A stretch of 64,000 nucleotides of DNA from an uncultured Actinomycetes bacterium. Its GTDB lineage: Bacteria; Actinomycetota; UBA4738; HRBIN12. The position numbers and the translations under genes were made by a program. The notes under the pieces were generated by a model, which saw only the letters and a program-made list of their open reading frames with translations, searched no databases and was not told the origin of the DNA. The stretch covers positions 18,068 to 82,067 of the forward strand of contig CAVVOG010000001.1 in the NCBI GenBank assembly GCA_963749895.1. The letters run 5' to 3'. Shown here in pieces: positions 21,926 through 51,240 of the stretch. Position 1 is the first letter of the stretch, and each line of letters starts with the position of its first letter.

Positions 21926-22626
21926 CCCGCCGCCTCCAGCCCCTCGTCCTCAGCCGGCTTCGGCCCATCGAACGGGGTCCCGGTGAAGTCCTCGTCGAGC
22001 GCCAGGCGGCCGTCCTCCACCGTGATGCCGCGGTCGGCGACCCGCCGGAGCTCCGAGGGGGCCGGTGAGCTCACGATCGCGGTGACCCCTCGCTCGTCGC
22101 GCAGGCGGCGCAGGACGCCCCAGAACACCTCGCGGCCCTCCTCGTCCAGGTTCGCGACCGGCTCGTCCAGCAGGAGCAGGGTCGGATCTCCGAGCAGCGC
22201 GATCGCGAGCGCGACCCGGTGACGCTGGCCACCCGAGAGCGTGCCGATCCGCGCGTCGTCGTCACGGACGAAGCCCTCGGGGAGCGGCACGGTGGCCCGG
22301 TCGGCGCCGCGGAGATCGGCGAACAGGTCGAGCATCTCGCCGACCGTGGCGTGCTCGGGCATCCCGACGGTCTGCGGCAGGTAGCCGATCCGCTCCCGAT
22401 GCGCCGGCGTGGCGTCGAGCTCGGCGCCGTCGAGACGGATCACGCCCTCGTGGCGGACGAGCCCGGCCACGCACTTCAGGAAGGTGCTCTTGCCGCTGCC
22501 GTTCGGCCCGCCGAGCGCGACGATCCTGCCCGCGGGCACGTCGAGGTCGACGCCGTGCAGCCCGAAGCCGCCCGGGTACACCTTGCGGAGCGCCTCGACG
22601 CGCAGACGTGACGTGCGCTCGCTCAT
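21922..22626 (-). CDS. nosF: ABC transporter ATP-binding protein, NosF-like
   Basis: Walker A GPNGSGKST, signature LSGGQRHRVAL, Walker B LLLLDEP. The ATG at 22626 overlaps the nosD stop (ATGA). Confidence 0.85.
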   Translation of the reverse strand: MSERTSRLRVEALRKVYPGGFGLHGVDLDVPAGRIVALGGPNGSGKSTFLKCVAGLVRHEGVIRLDGAELDATPAHRERIGYLPQTVGMPEHATVGEMLDLFADLRGADRATVPLPEGFVRDDDARIGTLSGGQRHRVALAIALLGDPTLLLLDEPVANLDEEGREVFWGVLRRLRDERGVTAIVSSPAPSELRRVADRGITVEDGRLALDEDFTGTPFDGPKPAEDEGLEAAG

Positions 22627-24122
22627 GCCGCCACCACCCTGCGGGGTCGCCGGCGCGCACGGACCAGGAGCCAGCCGCAGCCGAGGGTGAGCGCGAGCCC
22701 GGGGATCCACAGCGGTGCCCGCGGCCCGATCCGCTCGGCGGCCAGTGGCGGCGACGACAGCTCGGTCAGCGGTGCGTCGTCGAGCACGAGCGGCTCGGCC
22801 GGCGCCCACCGCTCCTCGACCGCCGACAGCAGCCGGAACGCCGGTCCGGAGGCGAGCGCGAGCAGGACGGGATCCTCCGCGATCAGCTGGCTCGTCCGGC
22901 CGCTCCGCGAGTACGCGAGGTCACCGGTGCCGTCGCCTCCGGCGTCGAAGCCGCCGTAGTCGCTCCAGTAGTTGCCCACGCCGTCGACGGTCCAGACCGC
23001 CTGCGTGCGCCCCGTCCCCCCGAGGGCCACCTGCGTCGTGTTCTCCACGAAGCCGTTGTCCGTGAACCACGCGTCGGCCGACGGGAACAGCAGGACGCCG
23101 ATCTGGTTCACCGCCACGGTGTTCCGAACCAGTCGGGCCGGCTCACCCCCCGTGCGGCCCGCGTCGTCGATGTGCACCGCGACGCGGTTGTCGGCGATCA
23201 CGTTGTCGCGCAGCAGCACGCCGCCGGCGTCCTTCACCAGGACGCCGAACCCGGTCGACGGGCTGCCGTTCTCGGTGATCGTGTTGCCCTCGACCGCGAC
23301 GGGCCCCCCGTACATCAGGACGATGCCGGAGAGGTTCCCGCTCAGGTCGTTGCCGCGGAACGCCACGTCGGCCGCGTACATGTCGTGGAGGCCGTAGCGG
23401 CTGTCCGACACGCGGACGCCCTCGATGACGCAGCCGGTCCCGTACGTCAGCTGGACGCCGTCGCGGACCGTCTCGATCACGCTGTCGCGCACGATCGTCC
23501 GTTCGCTGTCGAACAGCCAGATCCCGTCGCCGCGGAGCTTCGTAGGTTCGGCCTCGCCGCCGGCGTCGGTCGCGACGTCGCTCACCGCGTGGAGCTCTCC
23601 GGAGATGATCCCGCTGCCGCGGACCGTCACGCGCTCGATCACGACGTCACGGGCGCGCTGCACGGTGATGCCCATGTAGGAGTCCTGGACCTCCAGGTCG
23701 TGAAGGTACGCCCGGTGTCCCCCGCGCTTCACCAAGATCCCGGACGGCGCGCCCACCGGGAAGCGCTCGCTCCCGCGAACGAGGATGCCCGACACCTCGA
23801 CGTCGGGGGCCGCGACCGTGAGCACCGAACCCTCGCCCTGCCCGTCGAGCACGACGCCGGGCGCACCGACCAGCGTGATCGGCGCGTCGATCGTGAAGTT
23901 GCCGGTGTGGGTGCCGGCCGGAACGGTGACGGTCGACCCCGGCACCGCCGCGTCCAGCATCGCCTGCAGGTCACCCGTGGCGCCGGCGGGGGCCACGGGG
24001 AGCACCGTCGCCCCTGCGAGGGCGAGGCCCCCGAGCAGGAGGCGGACGGCGACGCGGACGCCCGCCACGGCGCTACCCCGTGACCGACGCGGGTTCGTCG
24101 GCCGGCGACGCGGCCTCGTCAC
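22623..24122 (-). CDS. nosD: periplasmic copper-binding protein NosD (right-handed parallel beta-helix repeats)
   Basis: Signal peptide followed by repeated beta-helix units (TVRGSG.., NVIADNRVAVHI.., FVENTT..). The exact start is uncertain (24122, or an internal Val near 24068). Confidence 0.85.
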   Translation of the reverse strand: MTRPRRRPTNPRRSRGSAVAGVRVAVRLLLGGLALAGATVLPVAPAGATGDLQAMLDAAVPGSTVTVPAGTHTGNFTIDAPITLVGAPGVVLDGQGEGSVLTVAAPDVEVSGILVRGSERFPVGAPSGILVKRGGHRAYLHDLEVQDSYMGITVQRARDVVIERVTVRGSGIISGELHAVSDVATDAGGEAEPTKLRGDGIWLFDSERTIVRDSVIETVRDGVQLTYGTGCVIEGVRVSDSRYGLHDMYAADVAFRGNDLSGNLSGIVLMYGGPVAVEGNTITENGSPSTGFGVLVKDAGGVLLRDNVIADNRVAVHIDDAGRTGGEPARLVRNTVAVNQIGVLLFPSADAWFTDNGFVENTTQVALGGTGRTQAVWTVDGVGNYWSDYGGFDAGGDGTGDLAYSRSGRTSQLIAEDPVLLALASGPAFRLLSAVEERWAPAEPLVLDDAPLTELSSPPLAAERIGPRAPLWIPGLALTLGCGWLLVRARRRPRRVVAA

Positions 24123-24738
24123 CGTCCTCGTCGGACCGTCCGGCCGTCACGAACTCCTTGACGAAGCCCCAGTACATCGGGCCGAGCGTGACGAGCGCCG
24201 CGGCGCCGAACAGGCACCACAGCGCCTCGCCCGGCCACGCGATCGTCTTCACGTTGCTCGCGACCGCGACCTTCCCGATCACCCAGGGGGTGAACGGCTC
24301 GACGTCGATCGGGGCGGCAGGATCGATCGTGTGACCCATCTGGTACAGGCGGTACTGGATGTCGATCAGCACCCCGATCGGGATCAGCCAGAGCAGGACG
24401 ATCGCGCCGCGTCGCCACCATCCCGAGAGGACGGTGGCCACCGCGATCAGCGCGATCGCGGCGACGAGCGCCGGGTTCCACAACACCGTCTCCGCCAACT
24501 CGCCCATGTCGAAGACCTTCACCCCGACGTAGTGGTTCAAGATCGCGATCTCGTCGACGTCGCCCTCGATCCGATCGCCGTAGGCGGTCAGGACCAGCTG
24601 GCGGTTCGGGTACTGCAGGACCTCGAGCCGGGCCTGCCAGACGGGCAAGCCGAAGGCCAGGACGACGAGGACGACGGCCACCGCGCCGAAGACGACCCGG
24701 ACGAGCCGGTCCCCTCGAGCGCTCCGGTCAGCCGTCAT
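24073..24738 (-). CDS. polytopic membrane protein of unknown function inside the nos cluster (possible NosB-like)
   Basis: 5-6 predicted helices, no signal or lipobox; located between the cupredoxin gene and nosD. Confidence 0.55.
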   Translation of the reverse strand: MTADRSARGDRLVRVVFGAVAVVLVVLAFGLPVWQARLEVLQYPNRQLVLTAYGDRIEGDVDEIAILNHYVGVKVFDMGELAETVLWNPALVAAIALIAVATVLSGWWRRGAIVLLWLIPIGVLIDIQYRLYQMGHTIDPAAPIDVEPFTPWVIGKVAVASNVKTIAWPGEALWCLFGAAALVTLGPMYWGFVKEFVTAGRSDEDGDEAASPADEPASVTG

Positions 24739-24767
24739 CCTCGATCGTCCCTCCGAACGTCAGGACC

Positions 24768-25238
24768 TCATCCCACCGTGAGCGTGCCGACCATCGTGGC
24801 CGGGTGGGCGAAGCAGTTGAAGGTGTAGGTGCCCGCGGGGAGCGCCGGGATCTCGTACACGACCTCGGCGACGCCGTTGATCAACTCGTTGTTCGCGGGC
24901 GCGAACACCGGGGTCACGGTCGTGTCGGTGCCCTCGAAGATCTGAACGTTGTGCGGGATGCCCGTGTCGTCGTTCTTGAACAGGATCGTGAACGGGGTGT
25001 CGGCGGGCGCGGACAGCTCCGTCTCGGCGAACCCGGTGTTCGAGGACCCGACCGGCGCGGTGATCGTGAGTTCGGTCGACGGCGCCGTCGTCTCGGTCTC
25101 GGTCGCGGCCGACGACGAAGTGGACGTCGCCGCGCTGGAGGTCGTGGTCGTCTCGTCGGCCGGGCTGTCGCCGCCCGAGCAGGCCGACAGGACGAGCCCG
25201 GCGACCACCGCGACCGCGGCGATCCGGATGAACCTCAT
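24768..25238 (-). CDS. cupredoxin (plastocyanin/azurin-type blue copper) lipoprotein
   Basis: RBS AAAGGAG; lipobox LSAC; type-1 copper ligands His (PHNVQIF) and C-x2-H-x3-M (FNCFAHPATM). Confidence 0.8.
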   Translation of the reverse strand: MRFIRIAAVAVVAGLVLSACSGGDSPADETTTTSSAATSTSSSAATETETTAPSTELTITAPVGSSNTGFAETELSAPADTPFTILFKNDDTGIPHNVQIFEGTDTTVTPVFAPANNELINGVAEVVYEIPALPAGTYTFNCFAHPATMVGTLTVG

Positions 25239-25341
25239 GCGTGCTCCTTTCGATGCGGATCCCTCGTGAGCTGCGTGGAACGCGAGGGGGGCGCCGGGTG
25301 GCGCCCCCACCATGGTAGGGGCGCCACCCGGCTTGGGGGGG

Positions 25342-27318
25342 TTAGGGCGCCACCTCGATCCAGCCCTGCATCTCGAGGTGGAGGGCGGAGCAGAACTCCG
25401 TGCAGTACATCGCGAAGGTCCCCGGCCGGTTGAGCGGCAGGTCGACGTTCACGACCTCGCCCGCGTCGATCGAGACCTCGATGTTGTGCTGAGGGATCGC
25501 GAACCCGTGGGTCGCGTCGGGCGTCTGCTCCACGTTCGTCAGGTGCAGCCGGAGGGTGTCGCCGACCTTCGCCTGGATCGTGTCCGGCGTGAAGTGGCTC
25601 CGCAGCACCGACATGTAGACGTGGACGTCCTTGCCGTCGCGCTCGATCTTCTCCTGCCCGGCTTCGATCGCGAACTCGGACCTCGCCCAGGTGGCGGGGT
25701 CCGTCCCCGGGTCGTACACCTGGATCGTGTGGACGAGCTTGTCCGCCTTGATCATCTGGACGTAGTGCGGCTCGCCCATGCCGATCGGCGCGTCGTACAG
25801 CACCTCCATCTGGTCGCCGGTCAGGTCGACCAGCTGGAAGTTCTGCGGGTGCAACGTGCCGAGCGGCGGGAAGCGGTCGATCGACCACTTGTTGAGCGCC
25901 ACGAGGTAGGTCCCGTCGGGGTTCACCGTGTCGCCCTCGGCGGTCACCAGGTGCCCGATGTTGTACTGGACCGGCAGCTTCTCCACGAGCTGGAACGCAT
26001 CCCCGTCGTGCCCGGCCTTCGGCCCGAGGGACCACTTCGCGACGGCCGTGTCGATGAACAGCGACGTGTAGGCGTAGCCCTTGTCGTCGAACTGCGTGTG
26101 GAGCGGCCCCGCACCCAGCTCGACCTGCGCGATCATCACGTCCTCGAGCTTGAGGATCGGCACGCCGTACTCGTCTTCGCCCTCGTAGGTGCCGGCGTCG
26201 ATCGCGGCCTTGATCTTCTCGAACTCGTAGACGCTGCCGTTCGGATCGAGCTTGCCGCCGATGCAGATGTAGTCGCCGGTCGGATTCACGTCGACGCCGT
26301 GCGGGCTCTTCGGCTCTGGCGCGAGCGTCAGGACCTTCTCGGCTGCAGCCACGTCGAGCGGGATCACGTTCATCCCGTTGATCTCGACCGTCTCGCCGGC
26401 CTTGAAGAGCTCCTCGGCCTTCTGCCAGTCGATGATGTGGAGGTAGTCGTAGTCGTTCGCGGAGGCGCCGGCCTCGAGCGGCTGACCACCCTGCGAGGTC
26501 CCGACCGCCATCTCCGAGTTGTACGAGTTGATGAATCCGTAGCCGAAGCTGGTCAGCTTGCCGGCGTCGGCGAGGTCCTGCGTGTACGGGGGAAGTTCGA
26601 TCTGGAAGGTGCTCGCCTTGTCGAACCTGCCGGTCTCCTGGTCGATCGCGATCCACGTCGAGAACCCGCGGAACTCCTCCTTGAACCTCGACAGGGGCGC
26701 GTAGCCGTTCACGGGGGTCGGCGTCATCGTCGAGATGTGCACGTACTCCGAGTTGGGCGTCACGAAGCACCCGCCGTGCGAGGTCTGGAGGTTGGGGATG
26801 TCCCAGATCTCCTTGGTCTTGAAGTCGCGGAGATCGATCATCGCGATCCGGCCGTTCGCGCGGTCGTTGATGTAGAGCCAGCGACCGTCGTAGTCGCCCT
26901 CGGTCTCGGACAGCGCCGGGTGGTGCGTGTCACCCCAGTACACCGGGTTGCTCTTGTCGGGGTCGATCCCACCCTCGAGCACGAGGTTCCCCTGATCGCT
27001 GCCGTAGCCGTACCCCTGCCACGCATCGGGTGTGAAGACGGGGATCACCTTGAGGACGCGCATCGAGGGCACACCCATCACGATCATCTGCCCGGAGTGC
27101 CCGCCGGACGCGAACATGAAGTACGGGTCGTACTCGCCGGGTGGGACGAACGTCTTCTGCGCGGCGCTCGACTGGTCACCCGTCAGCCCCTGCCCGGAGT
27201 CGCCGTCGTCCCCGCCGGACGAGGAGAACCCGACCCTCGCCCCGGCTGCCCCGACCACGACGCCGCCCGCGAGCATGCCCAGCGCCGCTCGGCGAGAGAC
27301 CTGCGGTCCACCTGCCAT
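25342..27318 (-). CDS. nosZ: nitrous-oxide reductase NosZ (Tat-dependent)
   Basis: Twin-arginine signal SRRAALGMLAGG and a beta-propeller body. C-terminal CuA site HGF...YCTEFCSALHLEM. RBS GAAGGAGGAG lies before the ATG at 27318; an alternative upstream ATG exists at 27354. Confidence 0.95.
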   Translation of the reverse strand: MAGGPQVSRRAALGMLAGGVVVGAAGARVGFSSSGGDDGDSGQGLTGDQSSAAQKTFVPPGEYDPYFMFASGGHSGQMIVMGVPSMRVLKVIPVFTPDAWQGYGYGSDQGNLVLEGGIDPDKSNPVYWGDTHHPALSETEGDYDGRWLYINDRANGRIAMIDLRDFKTKEIWDIPNLQTSHGGCFVTPNSEYVHISTMTPTPVNGYAPLSRFKEEFRGFSTWIAIDQETGRFDKASTFQIELPPYTQDLADAGKLTSFGYGFINSYNSEMAVGTSQGGQPLEAGASANDYDYLHIIDWQKAEELFKAGETVEINGMNVIPLDVAAAEKVLTLAPEPKSPHGVDVNPTGDYICIGGKLDPNGSVYEFEKIKAAIDAGTYEGEDEYGVPILKLEDVMIAQVELGAGPLHTQFDDKGYAYTSLFIDTAVAKWSLGPKAGHDGDAFQLVEKLPVQYNIGHLVTAEGDTVNPDGTYLVALNKWSIDRFPPLGTLHPQNFQLVDLTGDQMEVLYDAPIGMGEPHYVQMIKADKLVHTIQVYDPGTDPATWARSEFAIEAGQEKIERDGKDVHVYMSVLRSHFTPDTIQAKVGDTLRLHLTNVEQTPDATHGFAIPQHNIEVSIDAGEVVNVDLPLNRPGTFAMYCTEFCSALHLEMQGWIEVAP

Positions 27319-27336
27319 GGTGCTCCTCCTTCTCTC

Positions 27337-27353
27337 TGGACCTTTCTGGTCCA
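27337..27353. promoter_or_regulatory. perfect palindrome TGGACC-N5-GGTCCA, 19 nt upstream of the nosZ start; candidate operator
   Basis: Read directly from the sequence. It is part of a GGACC/GGTCC-rich array spanning 27337-27485. Confidence 0.4.
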
Positions 27354-27400
27354 TTGCCCCGTCACCGTGGCACCGATCGAACGTCGGAGGGAAGCGCGAA

Positions 27401-33710: not shown

Positions 33711-36700
33711 TCAACCCGCGAGCGTCCGGAGCTGCCGCAGGGCGACCGTCAGCTGCGAGCCGTCGGTGACGCCCTCGACCGCCAAGGAGCGCATGAAGCG
33801 CCGCACGCGTTCCGCGGCCTCCGCGCGTGCCTCCAGGAACGTGTCGACGGCGTCGTCGATCGATCCACCGGAAGCCCCGTCGAGCACGCGTTCGCACAGG
33901 CGGCGGCGCAGAGCGAGGAGATCGTCCTCGGTCGACTGCAGCGCCCACCGCTGCCAGCGCGTGGTCGTGGGCAGCGACGCCAGCTGGGTCTCGAGCCAGT
34001 CGATCTCGAGCCGCTCCCCGAGCACGAAGAAGCCGCGGGCCACCTCCAGCGGCGACCATCCCGTCGCATGCGCCACGGCGATGATGTCGGGGGCGTGCAC
34101 GAGCTCAGGCTGGAAGGCGTGTCGGCGTGCCACGACCTCGGGGGCGCCGGCCGCGATCAGCCGTTGCGCTTCCTGCTCGTGCTCCTCTCGCCAGGCCTCC
34201 GGGCCGATCTGGTGGATCGCGGCCGACAGCTCGGCGAACGAGTCCCGAGCCTCTCCCACCGCCTCCGACAGCCGCCGCCCCGCCGCCTGCACGAGGTACC
34301 AACGGGAGGTCGTCTCGACGAGCCAGTCGACCCCGGTCATCAGCTCGGCCTGCACGATCGGGTCGATCTGACCGTCGAGGGCCTCCACGTCGGCCCAGCG
34401 TGCGACGGCCCCGGTCACGTCGCGCGCGATCCGGAACGCCCGGACCACATCGGCGGCATGCGCGCCGGTCTCGGTGACCATCCGGGAGACGAACGTGATC
34501 CCTTGCGAGTTGACGACGTCGTTCGCCGCCATCGTGGCGATGATCTCGCGGCGGAGCGGGTGTTCCGTGAGCAGATCGCCGAACCGCTCCACGATCGCCG
34601 AGGGGAAGTAGCGTTGAAGATCCACGGCCAGGTAGTCGCTGTCGGGGAGGTCGCTGGCGAGCAGCGCCGAGTACACGGAGCGCTTCGCGTAGGCGAGCAG
34701 GACCGACATCTCGGGGCGGGTGAGCCCCATCCCGGCCGCCCGCCGTTCCAGCACCTCTTCGCTCGTGGGCAGGAACTCGACCTCACGCTCGAGCTCTCCC
34801 TCGGCCTCGAGCTGCTGCATCAACTCCTCGTAGGCCTCGATCCGGGCCGGTGCGACCTGCTCCTCCTGGGACAGGATCTGCGCCTGGAGATAGTTGTCGT
34901 ACAACACGTGCTGGACCACATCGGGGGCGCATGCCTCCAGCAGCTCGTTGCGCCCCTCGACCGTCAGCTGGCCGCGGGCGATCGCGAGCCCCAGCAGGAT
35001 CTTCCAGTTGACCTCGTGGTCCGACGTGTCGACGCCCGCGGAGTTGTCGATGAAGTCGGTGTTGATCCGGCCCCCGGCGAGCGCGTACTCGATCCGACCG
35101 CGCTGGGTGAAGCCGAGGTTGCCGCCCTCGCCTACGACGCGGGCTCGGACGTCCCGCCCGTTCACCCGCACGGCGTCGTTGCCTCGGTCTCCCGCGTCGG
35201 CGTGGGTCTCCCGGGCGGACTTCACGTAGGTGCCGATCCCGCCGTTCCACAGTAGATCGACCGGCGCCTGCAAGATCCAACGGATCAGTTCGTCCGGGGT
35301 CATCTCCGCGGGCGCGTCGTCGGGGATCGAGAGGGCGGCGCGCACCTGCGGCGACGGAGCCACGCTCTTGGCCCTGCGGTCCACGACGTCCCCGCCGACG
35401 GACAAGAGCGAGCGGTCGTAGTCGTTCCACGACGAACCGGGCTGCTCGAACAGCCGCTGTCGCTCGACGAAGGACACCTTGGGGTCGATCGGCTCGGGAT
35501 CGAGGAACACGTGACGGTGATCGAACGCGGCGACGAGCCGGATCATCTCCGTGTAGAGCATGCCGTTGCCGAACACGTCGCCCGACATGTCGCCGACCCC
35601 GACCACGGTGAACGGATCTCGGCGCACGTCGATCCCCGGTTCGCGGAAGTGGCGCTTCACCGACTCCCACGCCCCGCGTGCCGTGATCCCCAGCGCCTTG
35701 TGGTCGTAGCCCGCTGAGCCCCCGCTCGCGAACGCGTCACCGAGCCAAAAGCCGTAGCGACCCGCCTGCTCGTTCGCGATGTCGGAGAAGGTCGCGGTTC
35801 CCTTGTCGGCCGCGACGACGAGGTACGCGTCCGGCGCGTCGAGCACACGGACCCCCTCCGGATGCACGATCTCGCCGTTCACCAGGTTGTCCGTGATGTC
35901 GAGCAGCCCGTGCATGAAGGTCACGTACTGCGTGACCACCTCCTGCCTGAGCTCCTCCGGCGTGGCGGGCGTGCGCTTCAGGACGAACCCGCCCTTCGAG
36001 CCGTCCGGCACGATGACCGCGTTCTTCACCTTCTGCGCCTTCATCAGGCCGAGCACCTCGGTGCGGTAGTCCTCCTTGCGGTCGGACCATCGGATCCCGC
36101 CGCGGGCGACCATCCCGCCGCGCAGATGGATCGCTTCCATCGTCGGCGAGTACACGAAGATCTCGAACAACGGATGCGGCTTGGGCATCTCCGGCACGTC
36201 GGCCGAGCGGAGCTTGAACGACAGGAACGAGCGGTCGGGCAGGTAGGCGTTGGTACGGACCGTGCTCTCGATCGTCCCCAGGAGCGACCGGATGATCTGA
36301 TCTTGGTCCAACGATGCGACCGACCCGAGATCGGCGAGGATCTGGGTTCGGATCGCCGTCGCCTCCTCGTCGCCCCCGGCGCGCGTGGGGTCGAACCGCG
36401 CCTCGAACAGCGCGACGAGTCGCGCCGCGATGTGCGGGTTCTCGGCCATCGCGTCGTTGCGGTAGTCCTCGGTGAACCGGCTCGACACGCGCATCCGGTA
36501 CTTGCGGTACGCGCGCAGGATCTGGACCTGTCGCCAGTCGAGGCCCGCGAACGTCACGAGGCGGTTCAGCGAGTCCACCTCGGCGGAGCCCCGCCACATC
36601 GCCCCGATCGCATCGACGACCCGCACGGAATCGGTCTCGAGGTTCAGGACGGCCCCGCGCCCGTCCAGCACGCCGAAGTCGTGGATGTACACCCGCCCGG

Positions 36701-38552
36701 CCCCACGGAGCTGCACCGGCACCTCTTCGACCGCCCGGAGACCGAGCGACTCGAGCAGCGGCATGAACGCTGACAGGTCGACCTTGCCCCCGGTCTTGTA
36801 GAGCTTCACCCGGGTGAGCCGCTCGCCGACGGTCTCGTTGTCCACGCCGACCACGAACCCGTCCGGGCTGCCTTCGAGCTCCTCGAGATGCAGCACGTCC
36901 TCCACGACGAGCGCCCAGTCCGTATCGGAGGTCTTGTAGTAGTCGGGGAACCGTGAGGCGTACTTCGTCGCGAGCGCGCTGCCGCGGTCGCGGCCCAGCC
37001 GGGCGACGAGGGTGTCGTGCAGATCGTCGTCCCACGTCCGCGCGAGCCGCTCCACCTCCGCCTCGAGCTCCTCGTAGGGCACCTCCGGGATGTGCACGCC
37101 GGGGTCGACGTGGATCGTGAAGAAGATCCGCGCGGACTCGGTCTCGCCGAGCGAGAGGTGGTAGTCGATCGTCGAGCCGTTGAAACGCTCGAGGAACATC
37201 GACTGCAGCCGTTTGCGGAGGGAGGCGCTGAACCGCTCCCGAGGCAGGGCCACCACGATCGACACCTGCCGTCCGTAGAGGTCCCTGCGCACGAGCACCC
37301 TGATCCCGCCGTGCTTCTCGAGCTGGAGCAGGCCCGTCACGAGCTGACGGAGGTCCTCGGCAGACGCGAGGAACAGCTCGTCGCGCGGGAACGACTCGAA
37401 CAGCTCGACGGCCTGCTTGTAGTCGTGCGACCCCGGGATCAGATCCTCGGCCGCGATGATCTGGTCGAGCTTGTGGTGCAGCAGCGGCGTCGAGGACGCC
37501 GACTCCATGTACGCCTTCGAGGTGAACAACCCGATGAGTCGCGCCTCACCGTGGATCTCGCCGTCGGCTCCGACGATCCGGACACCGATCGAGTCCATCC
37601 GCGCGCGTCGGTGCACGGTCGAGTACGAGTTCGTCTTGCCGAGCGCGAGCAGATCGCCTTCGACAATCCGACGTCGGACGTCGGTCGGCAGCGTGTCCAG
37701 CGGGGTGACCTCCCCGAACATCGAGGTCGACGTGTCCGCCAAGATCCCCAGGCCGCTCGAGGGGACCGCATGGATCGATCGTCCTCGCTCGGTGTCGAGG
37801 AGCTCGTACTCGCGGTAGCCGAGCAGCACGAAGTTGAGCTGGAGCAGCCAGTCGAGGAAGTCGACGGTCTCGCCGACCTCCTGGGGCGAGTAGCGCACGG
37901 CCGCCGCCCGCGCCAGCTCGATCATGTGGCGTACGCGATCTTGCATCGGCTCGAAGTCGCGCACGACCAGTCGGACGTCATGCAGGATCGTCCGGATCCG
38001 CTCTTCCAGGCGCGCCTGCTCGTCGGCAGACAGCTCACGCTCGAGCTCGAAGTGCATCACCGATTCGCGGTGCGACGCGTCGCGCCCCGACATCACCCGC
38101 TCGAGGCGGCCCTCGCCGTCGCGCGCCGTACCGATCACCGGGTGGAGCAGCCGTCGGAAGGGGAGGTCCGCGGCGACGAGCTCCTCGGACACCGAATCGA
38201 CCAGGAACGGCGAGTCGTCGGTGTTCGTCTCCAGGACCGAACCCGGTGCCGTGTACCCGTGCTCCTCGAGCGTCGGGGTGAACACCCGCACGGCCGACGG
38301 TCGGTTGCCGCGTTCATCGATCAAGGAGAACAGCGATGCCGTCATCCGGTAGAGGGCCTCGGTACCGACCTCCTGCATCTCGTCGGCCGACAGCCTCCGC
38401 ACGAACGCCTTCGCGAACGCGACGAGCGCGTCCTGGCGCTGGGGCGGGGCCTCGGCGTGGATCCGCTCGGCGATCGCGTCGAAGTAGGAGGAACCGGCGG
38501 GAGGCGACGGTGCGGCGGGGGGCTGCGCGGAGTGTGGCTCGGTATCGGACAC
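33711..38552 (-). CDS. NAD-specific glutamate dehydrogenase, giant (about 180 kDa) GDH family
   Basis: 1613 aa, uninterrupted; central catalytic domain with Gdh-specific N- and C-terminal extensions. GTG start. Confidence 0.93.
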   Translation of the reverse strand: MSDTEPHSAQPPAAPSPPAGSSYFDAIAERIHAEAPPQRQDALVAFAKAFVRRLSADEMQEVGTEALYRMTASLFSLIDERGNRPSAVRVFTPTLEEHGYTAPGSVLETNTDDSPFLVDSVSEELVAADLPFRRLLHPVIGTARDGEGRLERVMSGRDASHRESVMHFELERELSADEQARLEERIRTILHDVRLVVRDFEPMQDRVRHMIELARAAAVRYSPQEVGETVDFLDWLLQLNFVLLGYREYELLDTERGRSIHAVPSSGLGILADTSTSMFGEVTPLDTLPTDVRRRIVEGDLLALGKTNSYSTVHRRARMDSIGVRIVGADGEIHGEARLIGLFTSKAYMESASSTPLLHHKLDQIIAAEDLIPGSHDYKQAVELFESFPRDELFLASAEDLRQLVTGLLQLEKHGGIRVLVRRDLYGRQVSIVVALPRERFSASLRKRLQSMFLERFNGSTIDYHLSLGETESARIFFTIHVDPGVHIPEVPYEELEAEVERLARTWDDDLHDTLVARLGRDRGSALATKYASRFPDYYKTSDTDWALVVEDVLHLEELEGSPDGFVVGVDNETVGERLTRVKLYKTGGKVDLSAFMPLLESLGLRAVEEVPVQLRGAGRVYIHDFGVLDGRGAVLNLETDSVRVVDAIGAMWRGSAEVDSLNRLVTFAGLDWRQVQILRAYRKYRMRVSSRFTEDYRNDAMAENPHIAARLVALFEARFDPTRAGGDEEATAIRTQILADLGSVASLDQDQIIRSLLGTIESTVRTNAYLPDRSFLSFKLRSADVPEMPKPHPLFEIFVYSPTMEAIHLRGGMVARGGIRWSDRKEDYRTEVLGLMKAQKVKNAVIVPDGSKGGFVLKRTPATPEELRQEVVTQYVTFMHGLLDITDNLVNGEIVHPEGVRVLDAPDAYLVVAADKGTATFSDIANEQAGRYGFWLGDAFASGGSAGYDHKALGITARGAWESVKRHFREPGIDVRRDPFTVVGVGDMSGDVFGNGMLYTEMIRLVAAFDHRHVFLDPEPIDPKVSFVERQRLFEQPGSSWNDYDRSLLSVGGDVVDRRAKSVAPSPQVRAALSIPDDAPAEMTPDELIRWILQAPVDLLWNGGIGTYVKSARETHADAGDRGNDAVRVNGRDVRARVVGEGGNLGFTQRGRIEYALAGGRINTDFIDNSAGVDTSDHEVNWKILLGLAIARGQLTVEGRNELLEACAPDVVQHVLYDNYLQAQILSQEEQVAPARIEAYEELMQQLEAEGELEREVEFLPTSEEVLERRAAGMGLTRPEMSVLLAYAKRSVYSALLASDLPDSDYLAVDLQRYFPSAIVERFGDLLTEHPLRREIIATMAANDVVNSQGITFVSRMVTETGAHAADVVRAFRIARDVTGAVARWADVEALDGQIDPIVQAELMTGVDWLVETTSRWYLVQAAGRRLSEAVGEARDSFAELSAAIHQIGPEAWREEHEQEAQRLIAAGAPEVVARRHAFQPELVHAPDIIAVAHATGWSPLEVARGFFVLGERLEIDWLETQLASLPTTTRWQRWALQSTEDDLLALRRRLCERVLDGASGGSIDDAVDTFLEARAEAAERVRRFMRSLAVEGVTDGSQLTVALRQLRTLAG

Positions 38553-38736: not shown

Positions 38737-39564
38737 ATGAAGTGGTGGACGAGATGGCGGGTCTGCCTCGCGTCCGTGATCGGCCTCACACTGGTGTTTC
38801 CCGCTACGGCGACGAAGTCACTGCCCGTGGCGGAGGTGTGGCCGGACTCACCGGTTGCCGCCACCTTCTCGGCGGGACGAGGGGATGGGTACATGCGCGT
38901 GGAGGTGACCCGACACGGCAACCTGCTGTTCGAATCACCTCAAGGGGTTCTCCTGACCGCGTTCGACGACGGGTACGCGCTCTGCGCTCCAGCGCCGACC
39001 ATGGAGGCCTTCGCCTACGACCTTCCTGTCGGGGAGGTGTGGCCGCTGGAGCAGGGCTTCACGTCGGCCTCGGTGAAGCAGCCAACTCCTGGCGCCTTCC
39101 CGGTCAAGATCATCCGGAAGACCACCGATGGGCGGCTCCGAGTGGACCAGACCTGGCAGGTTCCCGATGCGGCCGAGCGAGACGTGACCGTTCGGATGAC
39201 CGTGCGCAACCTGACCTTGACGACGATCGACGACGTGGCCTTGATGCGCAGCGCCGACGCGCACTACTCCGAGGACCTCTCGTGGTTCTTCCTCGGCGCG
39301 ACGACCGATGACACGGCTTTCCAGTGGTGGCAGGACCTCGCGAGCGAGGACGTGCGGGGGTTGGCGATGACCGCAGGGTCTCTCGGTCGGCCACACGAAG
39401 CCGGGATGTCGACCGATGTCGACCTCGCACTGTCATGCGGCGGCTTCGCCGAGATGTACCCGGACGCGCTGCGCGGCGGCGGGTTCCCCCAGGTCGTGTA
39501 CCAGCTTGGCACGCTCGAGCCTCGGGAGGAGGCGAGGTTCGTCTTCTCCTACCGTCGCATGTGA
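38737..39564 (+). CDS. secreted hypothetical protein
   Basis: RBS AAGGGGGTG and the signal peptide MKWWTRWRVCLASVIGLTLVFPATA; no recognisable domain. Confidence 0.6.
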   Translation: MKWWTRWRVCLASVIGLTLVFPATATKSLPVAEVWPDSPVAATFSAGRGDGYMRVEVTRHGNLLFESPQGVLLTAFDDGYALCAPAPTMEAFAYDLPVGEVWPLEQGFTSASVKQPTPGAFPVKIIRKTTDGRLRVDQTWQVPDAAERDVTVRMTVRNLTLTTIDDVALMRSADAHYSEDLSWFFLGATTDDTAFQWWQDLASEDVRGLAMTAGSLGRPHEAGMSTDVDLALSCGGFAEMYPDALRGGGFPQVVYQLGTLEPREEARFVFSYRRM

Positions 39565-39674
39565 GAACGGGCCCGTGCCGAGGGCCGCTGCTGCAAGTAG
39601 TGCCGAACGCGTAGCCGGGGTAGGCTACGTGCCGAGCGGGTGGCTGCCGGGCGCCCGCGGGGAGGGGCGTTCGG

Positions 39675-41015
39675 GTGGAAGACACGCGCATCCGTGTGGT
39701 CGTCGGCGAGGGGGACTCCCCTCGTCGCGGACTGCTCCGGTTCGTCCTGGAGGGCGACGGCTACGACGTCGTCGCGGACGCGTCCACTGCGGCCCAGCTG
39801 GCGCGCGCGGTCGCCGACCATGACCCGGAGGTCGTGGTCCTCGACGACGGCATCGGCGCGACGGCCCCTCAGGTCGTCCGCGAGATCTCTCCCCGAACGA
39901 AGATCATCCTGGTCTGGCCCGATGCGGTCGTGCCGATCGGCGGGGACGCACGGGTCGAGCCGTCGCAGGTCCTTCGACAGCTCGGCCCCACCGTCGCGAA
40001 GGTGGCCGCGGGGATCGCCGGACTCACCACGATCGAGCGCCCGGACTGGATCGAGAAGGTTCGCAAGGACCCCGCGACCCTGAGGGAGCGGCTCGAGCGC
40101 AGCGGCGGGCTCCCGAAGCGACCGAGCGTGACGGAGCTCCAGCGGCGCGGCCAGCGCCTGCACCCGGCCTCTCCCTCCGAGGAGGAACGGACCGGCGATC
40201 GAGACGAGGCCGGAGTCGCGCCGGTCCTCCCGCTCGCTGCTGCCGGCGCCGTGATCGGAGCGAGCGGGGCCGCGGAGGCGACGATCGAGCTCCCCGACTC
40301 CCCGGAAGCCGGGGCCCCGGTCCTGCACCTGCCTCCCGATGAGGGAGCCCCCGTGCCTGCAGGCGCCGGGGCGGCCGACGCGAACGCGACGGAGTTCAAC
40401 CGCCGGCTCGGTGCGATGGCGCTCGGAGGGGCGGCGGTGGTCGGCGCGGTCGTGCTCGCGCTGGCGCTCGGCGGCTCCAGGGTCCCGACCGACATCATCC
40501 TGGCGGAGGGTCCCGGGACGGCGGTCGTACCCGGACCGGCGATCGACTCCGGTCTCGACGAGCCCGAACCCCAGGAGCCCGGCGGTGAACCGGGCGAGCG
40601 TCCCGACGACGACGGCACGCAGCCCCCTCCCGGCATCGTGCCGGGAACCACGACCGACGGCCAGGACGACGGAACGCCCGGCGGCGGAACCGACCAGCCG
40701 CCGGCGCCCCCGGGGGGCGGGACCGAGCCTCCGCCGGAGATCCCCGGAGGCGAGAACCCGCCTTCCCCGCCTCCCACGTATCCCCCGTCTCCCCCGCCAC
40801 TCAGCGCCCCCGGAAGGAGCGCGCTGAGCAACCCACACGGTGTCCCACCAGGTCAGACGTCCGACGCGAGGTCGGCCTCCAGCAGCGTCACGGGCCCTGC
40901 CGGCAACGGCGCCCGTCACTGGGTCGACGGTCTCCCGGGCCACGCTGGCGAGCACGGACAGGGGATCGACCGCGGCAAGGGCCTGGACAAGATCCGGGAC
41001 CGCCTGGGCTCGTGA
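39675..41015 (+). CDS. membrane protein with an N-terminal degenerate receiver (REC-like) domain, a single TM and a Pro/Gly/Asp-rich extracytoplasmic region
   Basis: RBS GGAGGGG before the GTG. The REC-like fold lacks the acidic pair (VVVGEGDSP) but keeps an Asp in the VVVLDDGIG context. TM: LGAMALGGAAVVGAVVLALALGG. Confidence 0.6.
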   Translation: MEDTRIRVVVGEGDSPRRGLLRFVLEGDGYDVVADASTAAQLARAVADHDPEVVVLDDGIGATAPQVVREISPRTKIILVWPDAVVPIGGDARVEPSQVLRQLGPTVAKVAAGIAGLTTIERPDWIEKVRKDPATLRERLERSGGLPKRPSVTELQRRGQRLHPASPSEEERTGDRDEAGVAPVLPLAAAGAVIGASGAAEATIELPDSPEAGAPVLHLPPDEGAPVPAGAGAADANATEFNRRLGAMALGGAAVVGAVVLALALGGSRVPTDIILAEGPGTAVVPGPAIDSGLDEPEPQEPGGEPGERPDDDGTQPPPGIVPGTTTDGQDDGTPGGGTDQPPAPPGGGTEPPPEIPGGENPPSPPPTYPPSPPPLSAPGRSALSNPHGVPPGQTSDARSASSSVTGPAGNGARHWVDGLPGHAGEHGQGIDRGKGLDKIRDRLGS

Positions 41016-41040
41016 CGGCCGCTCCGCCATACTCGCACCC

Positions 41041-41886
41041 ATGACGGTGCAGAACGGCCACGGCACCCTCCGCCGCGTCTACGTCCGTCCGCCGGATTCC
41101 GCTGCTGTCCACGCGTGGGCCGACCATGGTTGGCACGCGCCGATCGATCTCGACCGTGCCGCCGAGGAGCACGCGGCCTTCCGCGCGGAGCTGGAGCGCG
41201 CCGGAGCCGAGGTCGTCGTCGGGACGACGCCGGTCCCGGGCGACCCCGACGCGATCTACGCGTACGACCCGTTGCTGCCTACCGACGACGGCGTCGTCGT
41301 CCTGCGTCCGGGCAAGGAGCAACGCCGGGGGGAGCCCGACGCCCTCGCCGCCGACCTCGAGGCCCTCGGCTTGAAGGTCCGTGGGCGGCTCGAGGCGCCC
41401 GCGACCGCCGAGGGCGGCGACATGTTCTTCCTCGACGAACGGACCCTCCTGGTCGGGATCGGCTACCGCACGAACGAGACCGCCGTCGAGCAGCTGCGGA
41501 CGTTGCTGCCCGACGTCGACGTCGCGTCCTTCGACCTGCCGCACCTCAACGGCCCCGACGAGTGCCTGCACCTGATGTCGTTCGTCTCCCCGCTCGACGC
41601 CGACCTCGCGGTCGTGTACCTCCCCCTGATGCCCGTCCGCCTCGTCCAGCTGCTCGCCGCGCGCGACGTCACGCTGGTGGAGGTGCCCGAAGCCGAGTTC
41701 CCGACGATGGGACCGAACGTGCTCGCCCTTGGACCCCGCCTGGCGCTCGCGTTGGAGGGCAACCCGATCACGAAGGAGCGGATGGAGGCGGCCGGGGTCG
41801 AGGTCCGCACCTACCGAGGCGACGAGATCAGTCGCAAGGGCGACGGCGGCCCGACCTGTCTGACCCGGCCCCTCGAGCGGGGTTGA
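41041..41886 (+). CDS. amidinotransferase-superfamily enzyme (dimethylarginine dimethylaminohydrolase/arginine-deiminase-like)
   Basis: Pentein-fold signatures and a C-terminal catalytic Cys in a G-G-P-T-C-L context. Confidence 0.75.
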   Translation: MTVQNGHGTLRRVYVRPPDSAAVHAWADHGWHAPIDLDRAAEEHAAFRAELERAGAEVVVGTTPVPGDPDAIYAYDPLLPTDDGVVVLRPGKEQRRGEPDALAADLEALGLKVRGRLEAPATAEGGDMFFLDERTLLVGIGYRTNETAVEQLRTLLPDVDVASFDLPHLNGPDECLHLMSFVSPLDADLAVVYLPLMPVRLVQLLAARDVTLVEVPEAEFPTMGPNVLALGPRLALALEGNPITKERMEAAGVEVRTYRGDEISRKGDGGPTCLTRPLERG

Positions 41887-48583: not shown

Positions 48584-50182
48584 TCAGCGTTCGTCAGGGT
48601 TCTCCCGAGGGTGGACGAGGCCGAACGCGTACGCGTCGACGAGCGCCTCCCACGATGCCTCGATGATGTTCTCGCTCACGCCGACGGTGGTCCACTCGGA
48701 CTCGCCGTTCGAGGTGTCGATCAAGACCCGGACCACGGCCCCGGTACCGACGCTCTGGTCGAGCACGCGGACGCGGTAGTCCTCCAGCGACATGTGCCCG
48801 AGCTCCGGATAGTCATTCGTGAGCGCCTTGCGGAGCGCGTTGTCGAGCGCACCAACGGGCCCCTGCCCCTCCGCCGACTCGATGTGACGCGTGCCCTTGG
48901 TCCGGACCTTCACGGTCGCCTCAGCGAGCGGGCCCTCCTCGTCGCCGACCCGCTCCTCCACGTGCACGCGGTAGCTCTCGATGTCGAAGAACGGCTGCTG
49001 CCACCCCGCGGCGCGTCGCAACAGCAGCTCGAGCGAAGCCTCGGCGACGTCGAACGCATAGCCGGCGGCCTCACGGTCCTTGATCTGGGCGACCGCGGTC
49101 GGGATCGCGTCGTCGGGCATGTCGTAGCCGAACTCGGCCGCCTTCATCCGGATCGTGGCCGCACCGCCGTAGTCCGACGCCACCACCCCGCGACGGTTCC
49201 CGACCGTATCCGGCGCGACGTGCTCGTAGGCCCGGGTCAGCCGCGCGACACCGCTGGTGTGCAGCCCCGCCTTGTGGGTGAACGCGTGGCGTCCGGCGTA
49301 CGGCTGGTGCGCGTCGGGCGCCAGGTTCGCGACCTCCGCCACGTAGTGCGCGAGTTCGGTCAGGTGCTCCACGCTCCCGCCCGGGAGCGCGTCGTCGACC
49401 CCCATCTTCAGCACGAGATCGGCGGTGATCGGGATCAGGTCGGCGTTGCCGGTGCGCTCCCCGTAGCCGTTCACGGTTCCCTGCACCTGATACACGCCCG
49501 CGTCGACCGCGATCAGCGAGTTCGCCACGGCGCAGCCCGCGTCGTTGTGGACGTGGATCCCGAGCGCGACCGCCGTCTGCGCCTTGACCTCATGGACGAT
49601 CCGGGCCACGTCGAACGGGAGCATCCCCCCGTTGGTGTCGCACAGGACCAGGCGCTCCGCGCCCGCCTCCTCGGCCGCCTCGAGCACCCGCATCGCGAAC
49701 CCCGGGTTCGCGACGTACCCGTCGAAGAAATGCTCGGCGTCGAAGAAGACTCGCCGACCCTCGCGCCGGAGGAACGCGATCGAGTCTCGGACCATCTCGA
49801 CGCCCTCCTCGATCCCGGTCCGCAGCGCCTCGGTCACGTGCAGGTCCCACGACTTGCCCACCAAGCACACGACCTCGGTCCCCGTGTCGAGGAGACCGCG
49901 CAGGACCTGGGAATCCTCGGCTCGCTCCCCCGCCTTGCGCGTCATCCCGAACGACGTCAGCTGCGCGTGCTTCAGGGTCTCCTTCGTCGCGACCTTGAAG
50001 AACTCGGTGTCGCGCGGGTTCGCACCCGGCCAGCCGCCCTCGACGTAGGGGAAGCCCACCTGGTCGAGCTTGTGAAGGATGCGCAGGCGATCTTCGATCG
50101 TGTAGCTGAGGTCCGCACGCTGTGCGCCGTCACGCAGGGTCGTGTCGTACAGCTCGACGGAGGGTGTCGTCGCCTCGCTCAC
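48584..50182 (-). CDS. cimA: (R)-citramalate synthase-like enzyme of the LeuA family
   Basis: LYDTTLRDGAQ and the YVEGGWPGANPRD motif typical of CimA-type synthases. The GTG start overlaps the leuB stop (GTGA). The N-terminal 128 codons of ORF 48584..50566 belong to leuB in another frame. Confidence 0.85.
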   Translation of the reverse strand: MSEATTPSVELYDTTLRDGAQRADLSYTIEDRLRILHKLDQVGFPYVEGGWPGANPRDTEFFKVATKETLKHAQLTSFGMTRKAGERAEDSQVLRGLLDTGTEVVCLVGKSWDLHVTEALRTGIEEGVEMVRDSIAFLRREGRRVFFDAEHFFDGYVANPGFAMRVLEAAEEAGAERLVLCDTNGGMLPFDVARIVHEVKAQTAVALGIHVHNDAGCAVANSLIAVDAGVYQVQGTVNGYGERTGNADLIPITADLVLKMGVDDALPGGSVEHLTELAHYVAEVANLAPDAHQPYAGRHAFTHKAGLHTSGVARLTRAYEHVAPDTVGNRRGVVASDYGGAATIRMKAAEFGYDMPDDAIPTAVAQIKDREAAGYAFDVAEASLELLLRRAAGWQQPFFDIESYRVHVEERVGDEEGPLAEATVKVRTKGTRHIESAEGQGPVGALDNALRKALTNDYPELGHMSLEDYRVRVLDQSVGTGAVVRVLIDTSNGESEWTTVGVSENIIEASWEALVDAYAFGLVHPRENPDER

Positions 50183-51240
50183 GGGGCCGACCCCTCCACG
50201 ACCAGATCGCCGACCTCGGTCGTCGTGAAGCCCATCTGCGCCGGCGCGCATGCTCGACATCTGCGAGGTCGCGCTGCGGATCCCCCGGTCGACGTCGTCG
50301 GCCGCCTCGTCCTCGCCGAGCTGCCGCAGCAGCATCTCGAGGGCGCCGATCGCCGCGAGCGGATTGATCGTGCCCTTGCCGGTCTCACTGGGCGCGGTGC
50401 CACCGATCGGCTCGAACATCGAGACGCCGTGCGGGCTGATGTTGCCCCCGGCGGCGATCCCCATGCCGCCCTGGATCATCGCTCCGAGGTCCGTGATGAT
50501 GTCGCCGAACATGTTGTCGGTGACGATCACGTCGAACCGGCCGGCGAGTCCAGGAAGTAGATGCACGCTGCGTCGACGTGGACGTAGTCGGTCTCGACGT
50601 CCGGGTACTCGAGGCCGACCGCGTCGACGACCCGCTGATAGAGGTCCCCGGCGAACGTCAGCACGTTCGTCTTGTGGACGAGCGTGACCTTCTTCCGGCG
50701 GCCGGGCCGCATCGCCAGATCGAAGGCGTAGCGGACGATCCGCTCGACCCCGTGGCGCGTGTTGACCGACTCCTGCACCGCGACCTCGTGCGGCGTGCCC
50801 TTGCGGTGGAACCCGCCGGCCCCGCTGTACAGGCCCTCCGAGTTCTCACGCACGACGATCATGTTCACGTCGTCCTCGGTATGGCTCGGTACCAGCGTCT
50901 CGACGCCCGGGTAGCGCACGACCGGTCGCAGGTTGACGTACTGGTCCAGCTCGAACCGGATCCGCAGCAGGAGGTCTCGTTCCAGGATCCCCGGCTTCAC
51001 CCGAGGATCACCGACCGCCCCGAGGTAGATCGCGTCCATCGAACGGAGCCGCTCGAGCTCGTCGTCGGGAAGGACCTCACCGGTGCGGAGGTACCGGTCG
51101 GCGCCCAGGTCGAAGTCCACGAGCGTCACCCCGAAGCCGTGACGCTCCCGTACCGCCTCGAGGACCTTGAGCCCCTCGCCGATCACCTCCGGTCCGGTGC
51201 CGTCGCCGGCGATCACCCCGATCGTGTGGGTCCGGGTCAC
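50179..51240 (-). pseudogene. leuB: 3-isopropylmalate dehydrogenase gene split over three frames (two compensating frameshifts); either a pseudogene or assembly indels
   Basis: The N-terminal 237 aa (ORF 50527..51240) end at a stop after [14 protein letters not shown]. The middle segment [13 protein letters not shown]...GTINPLAAI continues in a second frame (ORF ..50566). The C-terminus ..[13 protein letters not shown] returns to the first frame (ORF 50179..50403). Confidence 0.8.

Follow-up and report, generated by a model that had tools for sequence, protein, structure and literature searches.

Pseudo-receivers are receiver-like domains that lack at least one of the five catalytic residues of receivers. 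They make up several percent of all receiver domains, the switching of the bacterial ones is largely unknown, 18 of the 20 characterised atypical regulators described are orphans, and regions outside the classical switch gain functional importance in pseudo-receivers (PMC12632262). Here we describe a gene for a pseudo-receiver that is tied to the membrane, located at positions 39675-41015 of a 64,000-nucleotide stretch of DNA (hereafter the window) from an uncultured Actinomycetes bacterium (contig CAVVOG010000001.1 of assembly GCA_963749895.1). The product starts with a truncated pseudo-receiver head, followed by a helical module, a linker, a single transmembrane (TM) helix and a long tail predicted to be disordered and extracytoplasmic. 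An earlier note on this DNA, made from the sequence alone, had proposed a pseudo-receiver signalling or anchoring protein of a type not described. The pseudo-receiver interpretation is supported by the fold, by profile homology and by the family-wide loss of catalytic residues; the role is discussed below in graded terms.

The open reading frame (ORF) is a real gene. Its guanine-plus-cytosine (GC) content by codon position is about 0.80/0.55/0.87 along the whole ORF, with 0.85-0.90 at third positions, which in a window of about 72% GC is a coding signature. The GTG start codon is preceded by the Shine-Dalgarno-like GGGAGGGG, and the N-terminus of the protein, MEDTRIRVVVGEG, agrees with the N-termini of homologues. 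Codon-position GC, Shine-Dalgarno site and full-length homologues together rule out an artefact of high GC content, and the gene lies exactly where the earlier note had put it. Two antisense ORFs, 39549..41066 and 39869..40831, were rejected as misfits to the codon-position profile, which is that of plus-strand coding in the frame of 39675. Rfam gave no riboswitch or other RNA upstream of the gene.

Two AlphaFold2 models and two alignments, A1 of the full length and A2 of residues 1-172, give the anatomy of the protein (coordinates in Table 1). In the head the models place beta1 at residues 7-11, alpha1 at 20-27, beta2 at 31-36, alpha2 at 39-49, beta3 at 53-57, alpha3 at 64-71 and beta4 at 76-81, after which a hairpin leads from beta4 straight into beta5 (84-88); the next loop (89-96) is modelled poorly, and the long helix alpha5 (97-119) ends the head. 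The predicted local distance difference test (pLDDT) score is 83-97 up to residue 88 and below 50 for residues 89-96. Alpha4 is missing from both models, and as modelled the head probably departs from the (beta-alpha)5 topology of receivers.

Taken as a single sequence, the protein gives weak evidence of receiver homology: PF00072 was matched at 14.4 bits (E=0.044), below its gathering threshold of 30.2 bits, the NCBIfam family FixT at E=2e-4 and CheY in the PDB at E=0.009. The family as a whole is more informative. A family profile matched archaeal CheY (6er7) at E=2.9e-8 and dozens more receivers, with coverage always limited to positions 6-80, and 52 of 55 relatives matched PF00072 at E<=0.1 (best E=1.5e-4). 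The top matches of a Foldseek search against the PDB were all receivers, with compact alignments of about 80 residues at 2.2-2.9 Å. By these profile and structural matches a receiver-derived fold and receiver homology are established for the head, which descends from response-regulator receivers. The only other Pfam family matched by the window protein at E up to 1, the B12-binding domain PF02310 (E=0.05), was rejected as the identity of the head, being matched by only 6 of 55 relatives while receivers dominate the fold searches. The first 110 or so residues had been predicted to fold like CheY; structure prediction, profile match and Foldseek bear out the fold, but the extent was overstated, as sequence similarity ends at about residue 80 and alpha4 is absent.

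Residues at the former active site were counted in the alignment columns of 219 family members. The equivalent of CheY D12 is E12 (206/219), and that of D13, which is G13 in the window protein, is Gly in 172 members or Ala in 34 (together 206/219); only the first acidic position of the Mg2+-binding pair is kept, and the pair is incomplete. At the end of beta4 the Thr/Ser is lost, the CheY T87 equivalent being W81 in 211 of the 219, followed by P82. The beta5 region contains no Lys that could stand for CheY K109: the consensus of residues 82-100, PGAVVPIGGDARVEPxxVL, is Lys-free, the conserved P96 is preceded by Glu or Asp in 202 members, and the sole basic residue is R93 (183/219), whose exact structural equivalence to the Lys is uncertain given the pLDDT of residues 89-96. 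The loop between beta3 and alpha3 is four residues shorter in the family than in CheY. D57, which aligns with the phospho-acceptor of CheY, is retained in 209 of the 219. The motifs to which the earlier note had pointed, VVVGEGDSP with the acidic pair replaced and VVVLDDGIG with an Asp at the acceptor position, are thus both present and conserved.

With at least three of the five catalytic residues missing family-wide, the head is a pseudo-receiver by the definition of PMC12632262, recognised by profile and fold, its Pfam score lying below threshold. As D57 is present, it does not belong to the aspartate-less receivers. The minor pseudo-receiver families PF06490, PF21155, PF21194, PF21695, PF21714 and PF22368 gave no match to the window protein (Pfam, E up to 1) or to 55 relatives (E up to 0.1).

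A single TM helix had been expected to follow the receiver; there is one such helix, but it does not follow directly, since the helical module and the linker intervene. The module is basic and was modelled as helices 124-131, 133-142 and 152-162 (pLDDT 66-89), with P123, W125, K131, D132, R137 and Q156 invariant. A relic LuxR-type or other helix-turn-helix (HTH) domain was considered for residues 118-170 and dismissed, no Pfam family matching at E up to 10 save one chance SLBB hit. In the linker, column identity and occupancy are low except in block 181-190. The best hydrophobic window of the TM segment is 247-265 and the modelled helix spans 236-266; N242, R243, G246, A249, L250, G252, A253, A258 and G266 are at least 90% conserved, which is far above the need of a simple anchor. 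Lys and Arg are more frequent on the N-terminal than on the C-terminal flank of this helix in 139 members and the reverse holds in 13, so by the positive-inside rule the head is predicted to be cytoplasmic and the tail to lie outside.

The tail that follows comprises about 179-180 residues, with 21% Pro and 19% Gly. The earlier note was right about a Pro/Gly-rich tail of roughly this length (it gave about 170 residues) and wrong in describing it as PPG/TDG repeats, as the low complexity is a compositional bias. Most of the tail has pLDDT below 50 and no modelled secondary structure, and its length and composition vary across the family. Conserved islands occur nevertheless within it, and the alignments bear out the C-terminal segment that had looked conserved. 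The motif PGxSxxHNP[HF]GGPPG was found by regular expression in 73 of 113 long members, and its N, G, P and P are invariant in alignment A3. A profile search with the C-terminal motif gave only six short ORFs (48-88 aa) that hold little else and are probably fragments of the same family, and the idea of a portable module was dropped. In the family the tail end is His-rich, often with GLPGHAGEHG and, in many relatives, a terminal HxHK. In the 189 members whose TM helix could be detected, the His content is 4.7% in the tail and 1.4% in the cytoplasmic part; their final 60 residues contain a median of 6 His, with at least 5 in 136 of these members.

The family is widespread and has so far no name. 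A word-indexed search returned 321 relatives, with full-length matches from 88% down to about 40% identity, none of which carried a precomputed Pfam domain. A profile of the first 172 residues, searched exhaustively, gave 241 representatives of clusters at 50% identity at E<=1e-10, and 96 at E<=1e-30. Scanning one genome per species yielded 79 loci, all in metagenome-assembled genomes, of which 77 are labelled Actinomycetota, Actinomycetes or Actinobacteria, one 'Planctomycetaceae' and one 'uncultured bacterium'. The family sources included no cultured isolate, and cluster look-ups were metagenomic only. Cluster members go by the name 'hypothetical protein' or by automatically assigned ones, for instance 'CheY-like' and 'NarL/FixJ response regulator', and no family of Pfam, NCBIfam or PADLOC covers the protein above threshold. 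A clearly delimited group of at least 241 clusters (50% identity), it is a candidate for a Pfam family of its own. The earlier note had made its proposal depend on conservation in related genomes, and full-length homologues were found in many of them. The gene was seen once per locus, apparently as one copy per genome.

Conservation is unevenly spread over the protein. Residues 21-30, 51-60 and 81-90, which form the loops surrounding the former active site, are the best-conserved blocks; next in rank are the helical module and the TM helix, and the tail is least conserved. This peak around the former active site argues that the face is still used, for something other than canonical phosphotransfer. 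Our preferred reading, to which we give a probability of roughly 0.4, is that the protein, tethered to the membrane, serves in interaction or transduction independently of Asp phosphorylation, with a partner-binding head, a packing TM helix and a ligand-binding tail. It would be a single-pass membrane protein with its N-terminus inside and its C-terminus outside. The cytoplasmic head would have a receiver fold that lacks alpha4 and has no functional phosphorylation site, and its conserved acidic face (E12, D57, D58, D91 and E95, with W81 and R93) would, together with the small helical module behind it, bind a cytoplasmic partner. The strongly conserved Gly/Ala-rich TM helix may pack against another TM helix, whether of a partner or, in a dimer, of a second copy. 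The disordered Gly/Pro tail may extend into the cell wall, where the HNPHGGPPG motif and the His-rich end could bind a ligand; from the His enrichment of the tail, we infer that a divalent metal ion or protons are the most plausible one.

Several observations weigh against this proposal. D57 is near-invariant and R93 could in principle replace the Lys, so that phosphorylation may still occur; the models are unreliable precisely at residues 89-96, where a Lys equivalent would sit. Metal binding by the tail is an argument from composition, and the window protein itself has just 5 His among its final 60 residues, its terminus, ...IRDRLGS, being free of HxHK; an HxHK terminus hidden by a frameshift was sought in the other frames of the window and none was present. 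The gene context has yielded no partner, neighbours varying by clade and none being universal, with the NAD-specific glutamate dehydrogenase (NAD-GDH) gene as the only recurrent one. As to the signalling or anchoring role of the earlier note, its two halves correspond to this reading and to the one considered next.

A passive envelope or anchoring protein, in which the tail would span the wall as a spacer or form a surface polymer and the pseudo-receiver would be a cytoplasmic oligomerisation or localisation plug that passes no signal, is a possibility we consider rather unlikely. A long, disordered tail that varies in length and composition would suit it, as would the gene context, for which genes were called by codon-position GC in the window and the 79 loci and their products clustered. 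Loci of the main family share a syntenic stretch of housekeeping genes, with no signalling genes near. Upstream are found a CAP-domain protein, the NAD-GDH gene on the opposite strand and sometimes a homocysteine-methyltransferase/MTHFR fusion with an OsmC-like gene; downstream comes a DDAH/amidinotransferase-like gene, 25 nt away in the window, and beyond it a small membrane protein, serC, a VOC protein and a class-III aminotransferase. The NAD-GDH gene is in the upstream flank of 35 of the 41 loci having at least 5 kb upstream and is the direct divergent neighbour in 12; inherited synteny best accounts for this adjacency. In 23 of 54 loci the gene next downstream is the DDAH-like one. The apparent single copy and the kept synteny speak for the passive reading; a gene seen once per locus in such a region also fits a constitutive cellular role, which is a point for our preferred reading.

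One clade gives the passive reading a further point, as the gene there stands beside Tad pilus assembly genes. In this clade 2 (L008, L012, L016, L017, L027, L032, L040 and L050) a DUF983 zinc-ribbon membrane protein is usually encoded 3' of the gene, a convergent Tad/Flp pilus block (TadE/TadG-like, TadB, CpaF) lies downstream, directly after the pseudo-receiver gene in L012, L016 and L032, and an LppM lipoprotein gene is located upstream of the NAD-GDH gene. The protein is not an atypical receiver of the TadZ/CpaE type, since it has no ATPase domain and the Tad genes are near in one clade only, where they are convergent. What speaks against a passive role is that conservation peaks on the cytoplasmic side, in the active-site loops and the helical module, beyond the need of a plug; that specific short motifs of the tail are conserved; and that a distant subfamily, B, is found in signalling-rich neighbourhoods.

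Subfamily B (members P0219-P0255, about 340 aa) has a pseudo-receiver with the motifs GE[AG], LD, VWP and RV[ED]P, a TM helix and a Gly/Asp/Asn/His-rich tail, and is without the helical module. In three of four related loci (L080, L081 and L084) an orphan HisKA_3 kinase of 712-718 aa is convergent with the gene and has no adjacent response regulator. These three loci are mutually syntenic and their kinases about 69% identical, so that in evolutionary terms they are a single observation; the link to the kinase is a lead and not a general rule. Other neighbours in the subfamily are a class III cyclase (Guanylate_cyc; L080, L081, L083 and L085), an ABC transporter, or a partner-switching set of the STAS/RsbW type, P0254 adjoining a STAS/MEDS/RsbW-like set. 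As a separate observation, P0189 (locus L083, 8001-9455) carries two tandem receiver-like heads before its TM helix, the first with His at the position of the acceptor Asp, and a very His-rich tail.

The kinase speaks for another alternative, namely that the protein is still a phospho-accepting regulator: a distantly encoded orphan kinase would phosphorylate D57, Mg2+ would be bound by E12 and D58, R93 would take the place of the Lys, and the phosphorylation would alter the interactions of the membrane protein. The retention of D57, E12 and R93 in most members is in line with such a mechanism, and the nearest structural neighbours of the head include the receivers of DevR, VraR and Mycobacterium tuberculosis NarL, which we take to be NarL-type regulators that pair with HisKA_3 kinases. 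We nevertheless regard it as unlikely, with the second acidic residue, the Thr/Ser and the Lys lost, the loop between beta3 and alpha3 shortened, and alpha4, half of the usual output surface, missing. A histidine kinase as a general neighbour was rejected, the gene being confined to the three syntenic subfamily-B loci and absent from the other loci of that subfamily: a tblastn search with the kinase of a distant locus gave no match in the window or the 79 main-family loci, and no histidine kinase, sigma factor or other two-component gene occurs among the scanned called genes of the whole 64-kb window, in agreement with the earlier note, which had seen no cognate kinase nearby.

More speculative, and in our view distinctly unlikely, is a new kind of TM signal transducer. 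Its disordered, His-tipped ectodomain, with an HNPHGGPPG unit that resembles the prion octarepeat, would sense metal ions or pH within the wall, a conserved small-residue zipper in the TM helix would relay the signal, and the truncated pseudo-receiver, deprived of alpha4 and of its phosphorylation chemistry, would hand it to a cytoplasmic partner. The gene context of subfamily B hints at the orphan HisKA_3 kinase as this partner, in which case the protein would be a 'third component', bound to the membrane, in two-component signalling.

A surface metal buffer or chaperone, whose His/Asp/Gly-rich tail would bind Zn, Ni, Cu or Co outside the membrane while the cytoplasmic part is secondary, we hold to be very unlikely. 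It would account for the family-wide His enrichment at the tail end, which becomes extreme, together with Asp richness, in members such as P0171; HNPHGGPPGQ moreover shares P-H-G-G-x-x-G-Q with the prion octarepeat PHGGGWGQ, which we take to be copper-binding, a likeness that offers an analogy for the tail. Under this explanation it is hard to see why the tail should be least and the cytoplasmic domain most conserved, why the window protein should have few His and no HxHK, and why no conserved metal-transport or resistance genes are linked to the gene across loci. An anti-sigma-factor-like or ToxR-like TM regulator, whose basic module of three short helices would sequester a sigma factor or bind DNA, shares the N-in single-pass plan with cytoplasmic head and extracytoplasmic tail, but has next to no likelihood, given a head with receiver fold, no match to anti-sigma or HTH families, and no adjacent sigma factor gene in the window or the main-family loci.

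Table 1. Features of the pseudo-receiver gene and its divergent neighbour, in window positions
Feature	Position	Strand	Basis
Shine-Dalgarno-like GGGAGGGG, ending 7 nt before GTG	39660..39667	+	Read from sequence
Complete ORF, 446 aa plus stop (pseudo-receiver, helical module, linker, TM helix, disordered tail)	39675..41015	+	Coding GC signature, full-length homologues
Truncated pseudo-receiver domain without alpha4, residues 1-119	39675..40031	+	Alignments, AlphaFold2 models
Codon of D57, equivalent of the CheY D57 phospho-acceptor	39843..39845	+	HMMER alignments to CheY, column counts
Conserved three-helix module RPDWIEKVRKDPATLRERL...RPSVTELQRRGQRLHP, residues 121-165	40035..40169	+	Alignments, AlphaFold2
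Variable Ala/Pro/acidic cytoplasmic linker with semi-conserved motifs APVLPL and TIELP, residues 166-240	40170..40394	+	Column identity, composition
Juxtamembrane FNRRLG and Gly/Ala-rich TM helix, residues 241-269	40395..40481	+	Alignments, hydrophobicity
Predicted extracytoplasmic disordered Gly/Pro/Asp-rich tail, residues 270-446	40482..41012	+	AlphaFold2, composition
Sole true tandem repeat in the gene, 9-bp unit CCCGCCTCC, 4.7 copies, encoding a poly-Pro/Ser stretch	40757..40798	+	Repeat search
PGRSALSNPHGVPPGQT, with the conserved PGxSxxHNPHGGPPG motif, residues 379-395	40809..40859	+	Regular expression, alignment A3
GLPGHAGEHG His/Glu motif in the His-enriched C-terminal part, residues 419-428	40929..40958	+	Alignments
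NAD-specific glutamate dehydrogenase, 1613 aa, with its full set of ACT and helical domains, in divergent orientation to the pseudo-receiver gene	33711-38552	-	Domain scan

Directly upstream of the gene in the window, a 275-aa predicted secreted protein (38737-39564, plus strand) has no match in Pfam, NCBIfam or PADLOC. It was rejected as a conserved partner, being unrelated to the upstream 'cluster 8' protein of other loci and not conserved in position. A link to defence systems was likewise discarded, PADLOC being negative for the protein and its neighbours.

Three further features of the window, all on the minus strand, are recorded here. A nitrous-oxide reductase cluster (22623-27354) includes a NosD-like gene (22623..24122) and a NosZ-like gene (25342..27354) with nos_propeller and cupredoxin domains, and by its sequence suggests a capacity for N2O reduction in this uncultured actinobacterium. 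An 849-aa protein (29654-32203) combines DUF11 with C-terminal RTX calcium-binding nonapeptide repeats; RTX repeats are regarded as typical of Gram-negative bacteria and seem unusual for an actinobacterium. Finally, leuB is apparently interrupted (48584-51240): ORF 50527..51240 holds positions 1-230 of the Iso_dh profile, whereas positions 232-323 open ORF 48584..50566, taking up about 100 codons, and are read in the same frame as a cimA/leuA-like gene (HMGL-like and LeuA_dimer). At related loci a shorter cimA-like ORF (529-559 aa) follows a separate, slightly overlapping ORF, presumably leuB, that clusters with the leuB/cimA ORFs of the window. The interruption could be an assembly indel, or a pseudogene or fusion.

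Literature searches for the architecture and for the tail motif returned nothing specific, and no description was found of a pseudo-receiver joined to a TM helix and a disordered ectodomain. The claim of a type not described therefore holds only narrowly, for the protein itself, for which neither a named family nor a paper was found, but not for its class, since pseudo-receivers are common and well described (PMC12632262); the protein fits this broad class and no named subfamily of it, and the family overturns no expectation. Its hosts are a broad set of uncultured soil Actinomycetota with almost no known gene functions. If a signal is transmitted, the receiver fold would serve as the output end of a transmembrane sensor; if the role is structural, the family would be a lineage marker for the envelope biology of uncultured Actinomycetota. 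We consider it of moderate interest to specialists in two-component signalling and to students of these bacteria.

Compared with known systems, the family differs from canonical receivers (PF00072; CheY, NarL/DevR-type) by the loss of alpha4, the second acidic residue, the Thr/Ser and the Lys, and by having a TM helix and a disordered ectodomain in place of a DNA-binding or enzymatic output. The DevR/DosR receiver of M. tuberculosis (PDB 3c3w) has all catalytic residues, is phosphorylated by DevS/DosT and is joined to a LuxR-type HTH domain, none of which applies to the window protein. Single-pass anti-sigma factors and ToxR-like regulators share with it an N-terminal cytoplasmic head, one TM helix and an extracytoplasmic C-terminal part, often Pro-rich in Actinobacteria, but its head has a different fold, no sigma partner gene accompanies it and no DNA-binding domain was detected. 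His/Gly-rich metal binders, among which we would count the prion octarepeat and the His-rich tails of Hpn, SlyD and HypB, presumably resemble the tail in composition and short motif only. With the pseudo-receivers and atypical regulators of PMC12632262, such as FrzS, the ShkA pseudo-receiver and GlnR, the window protein has in common a receiver-like domain short of catalytic residues and an orphan state, no kinase gene being adjacent. Whereas most solved pseudo-receivers use alpha4 in the dimer interface, the window protein is an unusual member of the class that has lost alpha4, keeps the Asp and is anchored in the membrane, with a disordered ectodomain beyond it.

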